Source: Pseudomonas phage Pa_AttikonH10
Sequence record: PQ741806.1
Strand: one strand, 5' to 3'
DNA length: 64,000 bases
The translations under genes and the position numbers were made by a program. Below are positions 6,818-8,880 of the stretch, piece by piece. The notes beneath the pieces are model-generated. The model was not told the origin of the DNA and made no database searches. It worked only from the letters and a program-made list of their open reading frames with translations. Position 1 is the stretch's first letter. The number at the start of each line of letters is the position of its first letter.

Positions 6818-8419
6818 ATGGCTACTGCTGACTTCGATAATGAGTACGATGATACTCCAGAAGAGAATTTACTAGATCAAATTGATGAGATCAATGCGCA
6901 ACACGATCCTGACTCTAGTATTGAAAATAATGACGAGGTGGAAACTCCACCTTTCGTTCCTGATCAAAAAGAAATTAAACTACGTATTCCACGTAATGCT
7001 AAAACTGGAAATATCCGGGATGCTTCTGAACCGGCTATTAAAGATAGTGCTAGCATTCTTACTTTACTACGTGAGAATCCCCAGACTGTTTATAATTTCC
7101 TGGATCACAATAAAGAACTATTTAAAGCATTTGCTGATAATAAAGTAGATGACACTAGTGACGGTGTAAAGTGGACAGCTGCTATTCTGGAAGGCTTAGC
7201 TCACTCTATTGTTGAAGATGCACCAATCGGTGCAACTGCCCGAGAAGGTTCTGAATGGTCTAGTGAAATTCCTTATGGTGAAAAGATCATTCGACCTGGC
7301 CGACCTGTATTTAATACCAATGGTCGTAAAATGACCGATGATGAAACTCTAGTTTTCCTAACACGTAAAGCTAACATCGGTACGCCATATGATACTTTCC
7401 TACCTCATTCAGGTATTTGGGTAAAACTACGTGCACCTACTGGTACTGAAGTAGCTGCCCTACAAGCACGTCTAGCACAATTAAAGATCCGGCTAGGCGC
7501 TGAATCAAAAGGTATGCTGTTCTCAAACATGGCAGCTGTGTTACTTAACATGGTTAGTAGTTTAGCACTTGCATGTGTTATTCAATCCAACTATAAGTTC
7601 AACACCCCAACTGATCTAGAGCATGTTATCTCAGTAGCTGATGAGCCGTTCTTGCATCACGCACTAGCGGCGACTATGTATCCAGATGGATTTAATTATA
7701 GTTATCCATGCATTGCAGATGCCAATACATGTAACCATATTGAAACAGCGAAACTTAATATGTCAACGCTTGTTCAATATGATCTACTGGCATTCTCAGA
7801 AGAACAAAAGAAATATATTGCACGTAAGTTTAATGCATGTACTGAATCTGATCTTAAGACTTATAAAGAAGGATTCCGTATTGAAACTCAAGTAACTGAA
7901 ATGTTTGGTGACGTTGGTGTTGTTCTTGAGATGTGTACAATTGCTGATCGCCGAGAGTCTGGTGATAGTTGGATTAACTCAATTATCGATATGACTCAAG
8001 GTAGTTTTAATGAACCAGTCGATGGTCCGCAACGTTCTCAGTATATTGCACGTTTACAAAAGATCTCTATTGCCCGTCAGTTCTCACATTTTGTTAAAGA
8101 AATTAAAGTACGTGAAGATGACGATGGTGAAAGTTCTGAAGACAATATTCGTACTGCAACCACTAATCGTGAAACTATTGAAAAGTTCTTAACTAATATT
8201 CTATCCACACCGGAATATAATGACCGCTTTATTAATGCGGTGAGTAACTTCATTGATTCACAACTAATTGGAATGATTGCAATTACAAGTTGGAATTGTC
8301 CAGTATGTGAGTCACCTGCTGCTACTAAATTTAAAGAACGTTTCCCACACTTAATCCCTATTGACATGCTGTCAACTTTTTTTACTTTGGCGGCCTCGAA
8401 GTCAAACCGGATGGTGTAG
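6818..8419 (+). CDS. Hypothetical protein, zero-frame product of a candidate -1 frameshift gene
   Basis: 533-aa ORF. Slippery T7 run at 8377..8383 sits 11 codons before the stop. Confidence 0.6.
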   Translation: MATADFDNEYDDTPEENLLDQIDEINAQHDPDSSIENNDEVETPPFVPDQKEIKLRIPRNAKTGNIRDASEPAIKDSASILTLLRENPQTVYNFLDHNKELFKAFADNKVDDTSDGVKWTAAILEGLAHSIVEDAPIGATAREGSEWSSEIPYGEKIIRPGRPVFNTNGRKMTDDETLVFLTRKANIGTPYDTFLPHSGIWVKLRAPTGTEVAALQARLAQLKIRLGAESKGMLFSNMAAVLLNMVSSLALACVIQSNYKFNTPTDLEHVISVADEPFLHHALAATMYPDGFNYSYPCIADANTCNHIETAKLNMSTLVQYDLLAFSEEQKKYIARKFNACTESDLKTYKEGFRIETQVTEMFGDVGVVLEMCTIADRRESGDSWINSIIDMTQGSFNEPVDGPQRSQYIARLQKISIARQFSHFVKEIKVREDDDGESSEDNIRTATTNRETIEKFLTNILSTPEYNDRFINAVSNFIDSQLIGMIAITSWNCPVCESPAATKFKERFPHLIPIDMLSTFFTLAASKSNRMV

Positions 8420-8880
8420 TTAATGATCTGAGATATAGTCGTCTTGAGGCCACTTTCAAGGAAGATAGTGGTCACATCCTACATCCAAACTTTGGTTATG
8501 ATAAGTTAACTGAAGATGATACACACTTAGATAGACTATTATCGACAGTAGGGGCAGTAAGACCGTCTACAGCAGCACGTTTAACAAGAGAAGCATATCT
8601 ACTTGATTACGATATCGGTTCACCAGAAAACGGACCCATGTGGTTAAATAAGGTAAATCCTAAAGAGGACTTTATCGAAGGTGGGTTGAGAAGGAGACTG
8701 ACTAGAGATTTCTTCAAGTATAAAGTAGGTAGCTTATCTAATATGTCATTAACTGAATTCTTTGAATTAGCTTATTCTGAGGTAGAATACATAATTGAAT
8801 TATGTAGAAATATTACCCATAATGAAGCTGTTAATAACAATAACCAGTTAAATGAATTAAACAAGCCGTTAACTAAATAA
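8365..8880 (+). other. -1 frame continuation ORF (putative transframe C-terminal extension, about 166 codons)
   Basis: -1 frame opens at 8365, 4 codons before the T TTT TTT heptamer, and stays open to 8880. First ATG only at 8638. Followed by a strong terminator. Confidence 0.4.

Follow-up and report, generated by a model that had tools for sequence, protein, structure and literature searches.

The stretch of DNA analysed here (64,000 nucleotides of Pseudomonas phage Pa_AttikonH10, sequence record PQ741806.1; hereafter the window) carries a homolog of gp77, a core protein of the phage family Chimalliviridae, whose open reading frame (ORF) is joined at a run of T to a long continuation in the -1 frame. 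Comparison of this junction among related phages identifies -1 programmed ribosomal frameshifting by tRNAPhe on U_UUY as the best and a probable explanation for the arrangement. The 2.1-kb region around the putative slip site is 99-100 % identical to that of 46 Pseudomonas aeruginosa phages of the genus Phikzvirus (phiKZ, KTN4, PA7, SL2 and Bobae among them), and the window originates from a phiKZ-type Pseudomonas phage. KTN4_103 is the annotated 533-aa (amino acid) gene on DNA identical to the window ORF, and the two ORFs of the locus are named PHIKZ077 (zero frame) and PHIKZ076.4 (downstream) in phiKZ. The features of the locus are:

6818..8419, plus strand: zero-frame ORF, homolog of gp77/cg18 (533 aa, 59.7 kDa), the product of standard decoding
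8377..8383, plus strand: slippery heptamer U_UUU_UUU within the zero-frame codons ACU UUU UUU ACU (Phe521-Phe522; X_XXY_YYZ register), the proposed tRNAPhe slip site
8383..8880, plus strand: -1-frame extension of 165 codons and a stop, starting YFGGLEVKPDG, with a variable linker and then a conserved domain of ~130 aa
8384..8419, plus strand: two-frame overlap, in which the zero-frame tail TLAASKSNRMV and its stop lie over the start of the -1 extension
8638..8880, plus strand: 80-aa ORF (KTN4_102, PHIKZ076.4), annotated as a gene of its own from the first in-frame ATG
8898..8919, both strands: G+C-rich hairpin (CCCCTCTCC ... GGAGAGGGG) scoring as an intrinsic terminator on either strand, just past the -1-frame stop and between convergent genes

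The T7 heptamer lies where an earlier note on this DNA had placed it and is followed by 11 sense codons and the zero-frame stop TAG (8417-8419). The -1 frame is closed by TGA at 8362-8364, opens at 8365, i.e. four codons (H A V N) ahead of the run, and continues to its stop at 8878-8880 (171 codons in total, 165 of them past the slip); this agrees with the earlier note, as does the lack of a plausible start in this frame ahead of 8638, the position of its earliest ATG, GTG or TTG (an ATG). Two products had been foreseen for the gene. The long one of about 690 aa stands, with a trans-frame product computed at 522+165 = 687 aa and 77.5 kDa; the short one had been put at 522 aa and has 533 aa instead, F522 being the last residue before the shift. 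Both F521 and F522 are invariant in gp77 protein alignments. The predicted junction peptides are FPHLIPIDMLSTFFYFGGLEVKPDGVVNDLR for the trans-frame product (tryptic) and FPHLIPIDMLSTFFTLAASK as its zero-frame counterpart. At the composition of the window the probability of a stop is 0.066 per codon, giving P ~9e-6 for 171 open codons, and a chance origin of the open -1 frame is excluded. The 80-aa ORF most likely represents just the C-terminal half of the -1 extension. Within the Pseudomonas-phage group the overlap shows good nucleotide conservation, probably due to coding in both frames. The end of gp77 together with the slip site is also covered, in antisense, by a 132-aa GTG-start ORF on the minus strand (8077-8475), which is annotated in no record and probably spurious.

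The same geometry was found in all 43 distinct relatives examined at the DNA level, which include 33 loci from a scan of IMG/VR and seven from an exhaustive protein search (see below). In each locus a run of T5 to T8 occupies the same codon position, the zero frame ends 8-44 codons further on, and the -1 frame remains open over 151-223 codons; phage RVTF4 is the one exception among the loci (a second frame break inside the extension domain). These relatives range down to ~20 % identity, infect Pseudomonas, Erwinia, Escherichia, Ralstonia, Xanthomonas and Salmonella, and come from metagenomes as well as from no fewer than 10 genera. With the 165-residue -1 peptide as tblastn query, matches of 32-40 % identity were obtained in PhiPA3, Psa21, Phabio, Noxifer, the PS119XW/PA1C group, 201phi2-1 and Viktualia; most begin at query residue 1, right after the slip, the others at residue 10-11. 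At the junctions of these phages the zero frame reads ...(T/I/E)FF(T/M/I)LAG... and stops 8-16 codons later, and the -1 frame runs into the homologous domain. The arrangement is the same in remoter phages that were reached only via the N-terminal protein, namely Ralstonia RSF1, Erwinia RAY, Escherichia Goslar, Salmonella SPLA10, Pseudomonas DT01 and Xanthomonas LucasX. The longest extensions (223 codons, with a long linker insert) belong to the IMG/VR members L044-L047 and L051, which have 36 % G+C.

Within the extension, an alignment of 36 lineages reveals the motifs GH[VI]..FG, AY..[DE]YGI.[DN]H, P[LF]..V..H.KED and G[LI]S..EF..LP after the variable linker, and the sequence matches phrog_12109. 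Codon differences in the -1 frame amount to 5 synonymous and 0 non-synonymous between the window and kmuB, 51 and 27 between L006 and L029, 47 and 17 between L025 and L027, 44 and 29 between L024 and L034, and 17 and 2 between L044 and L047 (all four latter pairs being loci of the comparative set); the other two frames of the extension show ~8 synonymous and 70 non-synonymous differences in close pairs. By these counts, the -1 frame encodes a conserved domain under purifying selection. Usage of Arg codons breaks at the slip site: AGR codons make up 0 of 24 in the N-terminal part of the window gene (24 CGN) and 9 of 11 in the extension (2 CGN; Fisher p = 8e-7), and the family-wide share across 33 related loci is 5 % in the N-terminal part vs 20 % in the extension. 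Such an enrichment is as expected if few ribosomes read the extension, and may reflect weaker translational selection on a rarely translated part, which hints at a low efficiency of the shift; a regulatory role of the rare AGR codons could alternatively account for the break. The transcript should span the extension, since no terminator-like site was found between the zero-frame stop at 8419 and 8880. Hairpins similar to that at 8898..8919 follow the extension in PhiPA3, Phabio and others, where they are visible as ...PLPKERGL... in read-through translations.

The run itself is conserved beyond the demands of the protein sequence. TTT encodes the first Phe of the pair in 36 out of 36 lineages and the second in 30 out of 36, against a background TTT fraction of ~0.35 (about 0.1-0.6 in most gp77 genes), TTC being preferred for Phe. 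For the 36 TTT at the first Phe a naive product yields P ~1e-18, a value that ignores shared ancestry, although synonymous sites are saturated at 20-40 % protein identity. Judged from this alignment, the U-run itself is under selection. Common to all 43 loci is at least U_UUY in the zero-frame register, from which the run extends variably in the 5' direction and never in the 3' direction. The full arrangement is also present with short runs, i.e. T5 (GTT TTT ATC), T5 followed by C (T5C; GAG TTT TTC and ATA TTT TTC) and T6, the lineages concerned being L054 (T5), Noxifer (T5C), the PS119XW group, PhiPA3, Psa21, Phabio and others; Goslar is an example of T8. The earlier proposal of -1 frameshifting or transcriptional slippage is thus backed by comparative evidence, comprising the geometry in 43 out of 43 loci, purifying selection on the extension, conserved motifs ahead of any possible start, synonymous constraint on the U-run and no fused ORF among the inspected homologs.

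In the mechanism considered probable here, most ribosomes on the gp77/cg18 mRNA would read ACU UUU UUU ACU, stop at UAG 8417-8419 and release the 533-aa protein. A minority would slip one base in the 5' direction while tRNAPhe sits on UUU/UUY. The U_UUU_UUU of the window would let both tRNAs re-pair; in T5, T5C and T6 relatives full re-pairing would be possible only at the U_UUY tetramer. Shifted ribosomes would continue with UAC UUU GGC... and add 165 residues, resulting in the 687-aa protein that shares its N-terminal 522 residues with the short product. In Escherichia coli, U_UU.Y ranks second among the -1 tetramers and H_HH.U_UU.Y belongs to the best heptamers (Sharma et al. 2014, PMC4066793); U_UU.U_UU.Y shifts at >0.1 % there without stimulators (PMC4066793). 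Ribosomal tRNAPhe slippage is favoured because the U_UUY register is universal, short runs are kept, the motifs are shift-prone in E. coli and the site of T7 gene 10 is similar. We infer that the shift is ribosomal in nature and, because a stimulator is not detectable and the extension is rich in rare Arg codons, of low efficiency.

Several observations weigh against this explanation. In the T5C and T6 lineages the P-site tRNA would have to re-pair with a first-position mismatch (RUU). In the short overlap 8384..8419, with its few independent changes, the counts of synonymous and non-synonymous differences favour neither frame. A stem-loop or pseudoknot downstream of 8383, for which the earlier note had suggested a search, was looked for by RNAalifold, by comparison with shuffled folds and in Rfam, and did not emerge: RNAalifold on 16 relatives gave 0 consensus pairs downstream of the slip, the 87 nucleotides (nt) downstream of it in the window (8384-8470) do not fold more stably than shuffled sequences (z = -0.33), the stretches of 60 nt that follow the slip in 33 loci (mean z -0.32 +/- 0.18) are no stabler than other windows of the same genes, and Rfam has no match at the slip region. 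A long-range stem GGCCUC...GAGGCC in 8384-8470 was considered as a stimulator and rejected, being no more stable than shuffles. No sequence resembling a Shine-Dalgarno motif is visible in the upstream 30 nt of the inspected sequences. A cis-acting stimulator, which is usual but not obligatory, was therefore not found by these searches, which did not extend to pseudoknots and long-range pairings.

That no ribosomal stimulator was found also lends some weight to programmed transcriptional slippage, in which the multisubunit RNA polymerase of the phage would stutter on the A-run of the template and add one U to some of the transcripts. The resulting 687-aa protein would be identical, so the two mechanisms cannot be told apart directly from the sequence. 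Runs able to support polymerase slippage are present in the window (T7) and in many relatives (T7 or T8), a point that counts against ribosomal frameshifting, and UUUUUUU is avoided in all frames of E. coli genes, possibly because of slippage (PMC4066793). Yet a long homopolymer as in the window is not found across the family, and in several lineages a run of T5, T5C or T6 accompanies the complete arrangement. Such runs are below the length known for efficient polymerase slippage, a threshold established for bacterial RNA polymerase that may differ from that of phage polymerases. Moreover, the constant codon register (N UUU UUY) without any 3' extension is required by the ribosomal model only, even if the register may partly reflect the conserved Phe-Phe. 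We regard transcriptional slippage as unlikely, while ranking it first among the alternatives.

Considerably less probable is that translation of the extension is initiated separately, be it independently or in a coupled manner (by termination-reinitiation at the zero-frame stop or from a non-canonical start), to give a protein of its own; the two ORFs would then be adjacent genes and nothing more. Most records do annotate a distinct downstream gene, and its annotation varies: it has 80 aa in KTN4 and phiKZ, is absent from Wadjak 2 and kmuB, is replaced by short reverse-strand ORFs in Bobae, starts at a TTG overlapping the upstream stop in 201phi2-1 and at an ATG within the upstream gene in RAY. 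The TTG of 201phi2-1 would suit coupled initiation, and RAY and a few other phages have an in-frame start ahead of the slip. Across the loci, however, the first ATG, GTG or TTG of the -1 frame has no conserved position, its distance from the slip varying between -42 and +89 codons, and in the window and several other phages conserved motifs lie upstream of it (in the window 84 of the 165 extension residues, including the motifs GH[IV]..FG and AY..DY). Among related genera, conservation of the -1 frame begins at the first post-slip residue. In many lineages it opens 1-4 codons before the run, yet it never closes before the domain, and separate initiation would leave the synonymous-site constraint on the U-run unexplained. 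By its sequence, the extension lacks a usable conserved start of its own.

A third alternative, an artefact or decay in the form of a homopolymer sequencing error or a recent frameshift mutation giving a pseudogene, is effectively refuted already: homopolymer runs are classic places for both, and the extension of RVTF4 carries an additional frame break resembling error or decay, but the T7 is identical in 46 independently sequenced genomes, the break falls at the same residue in 43 out of 43 distant lineages, both parts are under purifying selection and an intact fused version was not seen. The homopolymer indel that the earlier note had wished to exclude is excluded as a sequencing error because T7 is unchanged in all 46 Phikzvirus genome records, which match an 86-nt probe spanning the run without any change in length and whose sequencing was spread over many years. 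RVTF4 (L010, PQ015378.1) is the sole relative with a broken extension; its break is located ~58 codons past the slip, where the -1 frame meets a stop and the domain goes on in the +1 frame, probably as a result of recent decay or of an indel in the assembly. Runs of at least seven T are under-represented in the 64-kb window, with 4 observed vs ~16 expected; they are located at 8377, 21369 (T8), 33183 and 49351. Runs of at least seven A are located at 8879 (A9, directly after the extension stop), 10013, 11603, 25815, 30844, 43777, 43787 and 45789.

A fused single-frame protein was not found in word-index searches of 5.8 billion proteins with the fused 687-aa query, the extension and an extension profile, which gave only 19 hits of 485-633 aa and 7 of 85-189 aa. 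An exhaustive hidden Markov model (HMM) search over 1.84 billion cluster representatives retrieved 1691 family members (clusters at 50 % identity, E <= 1e-3); those at E <= 1e-30 form 1115 clusters from public genomes and metagenomes, far more than the cultured Chimalliviridae suggest. Among the 150 representatives listed of the 1691 clusters, the match to the profile end lies at most 26 residues from the C-terminus in every case, and FF is found 8-34 residues (median 13) before the C-terminus in 148. The two representatives without FF (VFLTL and VFIAL) have the DNA GTT TTT TTG (T7) and GTT TTT ATC (T5), respectively, and the -1 extension is present in both. Relatives of 686-687 aa in BFVD and phrog_8054 were considered as fused forms and ruled out, their extra length being N-terminal and not C-terminal. 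Since no inspected lineage has fused or separated the two parts, we infer that both products are needed in a set ratio.

The 533-aa product has homologs in PHIKZ077, 201phi2-1 gp136, Goslar gp081 and RAY gp267, and matches phrog_4585 (E 7e-196). The protein corresponds to the Chimalliviridae core gene cg18, listed as hypothetical in the supplement of Prichard et al. (2023). Searches with the gp77 sequence in Pfam, NCBIfam and PDB gave no match. An AlphaFold2 model of the 533-aa product (mean predicted local distance difference test, pLDDT, 75; predicted template-modelling score, pTM, 0.79) has no structural neighbour in PDB. In a Foldseek search of BFVD, in which the targets are themselves predictions, the matches following the protein's own family were T4-like 'baseplate hub assembly' proteins (E 6e-5 to 1e-3, TMt 0.52-0.58), and the annotators of phages DT01 and AH06 likewise link the gp77 homologs to baseplate hub assembly. 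T4 gp26 and gp51 are paralogs in PF12322 (hits of 1e-64 and 4e-52). The HMM of PF12322 hits none of 19 gp77 family members, even at E <= 10, and hhalign of the gp77 family vs gp26 and gp51 gives a probability of 28 % over 37 columns in the CPxC...FFTL region, with no similarity between the extension and the C-terminal half of gp26/gp51. The link to T4 gp26/gp51, resting in part on modelled structures, may thus be taken as a weak lead and not as membership.

Four Cys residues arranged as two distant pairs, one of them CPxC (C298, C305, C494 and C497), are nearly invariant in the closer Pseudomonas-phage group; they are in the consensus of the wider alignment and less than 90 % conserved there. 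Their pattern suggests a structural zinc site. T4 gp26 and gp51 carry CxxC where hhalign aligns the CPxC of gp77. The virion structure of Goslar was modelled without gp81 and gp82, which fits a non-structural role of gp77; the records of 201phi2-1 gp136 and gp135 hold no mass-spectrometry note. The wider neighbourhood comprises the RAD2/SF2 helicase gp75, the non-virion RNA polymerase subunit gp74, the head protein gp79 and the virion RNA polymerase subunit gp80; in KTN4, KTN4_103 is flanked by a 164-aa ORF and short reverse-strand ORFs.

As a tentative idea, which we hold to be possible and no better than that, short and long gp77 might form a fixed-ratio pair of assembly factors for the baseplate hub or tail. 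The logic of lambda G/GT would then have been reinvented in a gp26/gp51-like scaffold, with a shift that operates without a cis stimulator and has its efficiency set by the bare U-run or by a trans-acting factor of the phage. Nucleus-forming jumbo phages make ribosome-binding proteins. If this were true, a conserved stimulator-free recoding signal would exist in more than 1000 phage lineages.

No description of the gp77 frameshift was found in the literature on phiKZ, Chimalliviridae, jumbo phages, 201phi2-1 or PHIKZ076.4, nor in genome records, the coverage being incomplete and absence no proof; the 2016 recoding review (PMC5009743) and a 2025 review of nucleus-forming phages do not describe the site either. 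Mentions of 'gp77' that were found in the literature refer to the numbering of other phages. The gene is one of ~70 core genes of the heavily studied Chimalliviridae. If the frameshift is real, all inspected genome records mis-annotate the locus, in that they either pair the 533-aa gene with a short 'hypothetical' ORF begun at an arbitrary codon or show nothing downstream, and neither the databases searched in proteomics nor core-gene lists and essentiality maps have contained the 77.5-kDa protein and its conserved 130-aa domain. It would further be an example of -1 recoding that is deeply conserved and lies outside the tail-chaperone genes, with a U-run as slip site and no recognisable stimulator. 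Its 43 natural variants (T5 to T8; UUC, UUG and AUC endings) would provide a mutational series for tRNAPhe slippage, and the universal retention of the split would imply that the product ratio matters, offering a handle on the function of the core gene.

Among known systems, the shift of lambda gpG/gpGT and the tail-assembly chaperones (Levin, Hendrix and Casjens 1993; reviewed in PMC5009743) resembles that proposed for gp77 in that a -1 slip close to the gene's 3' end yields a major short product and a minor one with an extra C-terminal domain, the products of gp77 being deduced from the geometry and its conservation. In both cases the arrangement is conserved across very divergent phages despite sequence divergence, and the lambda G/GT products are absent from the virion, just as there is no evidence for gp77 homologs being virion proteins. 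In contrast, gp77 has 533 aa vs ~100-150 aa in lambda-type chaperones, its gene is not located between tail tube and tape-measure genes but has a helicase, RNA polymerase subunits and a head protein as neighbours, and its slip site is a U-run instead of G_GGA_AAG. No similarity in sequence or fold was seen between gp77 and lambda G/GT, and by position, size and sequence gp77 is outside the tail-chaperone family.

At the slip site itself, T7 gene 10A/10B (G_GUU_UUC; Condron et al. 1991, as cited in PMC5009743) is comparable, as tRNAPhe slips from UUY onto UUU in T7 and, as proposed, in gp77. The first codon of the T7 heptamer is imperfect, like that in the R_UUU_UUY of PhiPA3, Psa21 and Noxifer, and in both systems the shift (proposed for gp77) takes place near the end of the gene and adds a C-terminal extension; T7 likewise has no conventional nearby stimulator. 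In T7 gene 10 the stimulator is more than 200 nt downstream, frameshifting depending on CCCC in a distant terminator (PMC5009743). Gene 10 encodes a capsid protein, whereas gp77 is a non-virion core protein with a much longer extension (165 aa) and is conserved across a virus family; a distant stimulator was not identified for it by the searches above, which left long-range pairings aside. The tandem slippage on X_XXY_YYZ proposed for gp77, giving two proteins with a common N-terminus, is shared with E. coli dnaX (tau/gamma) and IS3/IS911 orfAB. These use A_AAA_AAG together with strong Shine-Dalgarno-like and/or hairpin or pseudoknot stimulators, none of which were found at gp77, and the shifted product is the shorter one in dnaX and would be the longer one in gp77. 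Nested products are also formed by T4 gene 26, i.e. 26 and 26' (NC_000866, 115802-116428), the latter being the C-terminal 95 aa from I114. This start is located a few residues past WYTLGD, which hhalign weakly aligns (28 % probability) with the slip-site motif FFTLAA of gp77. Judged from these sequences, T4 gene 26 and gp77 may each make a pair of nested products about one and the same domain boundary, though not in the same way, internal initiation providing the full-length protein and its C-terminal part in T4 gene 26, and frameshifting the N-terminal part and the full-length protein in gp77.

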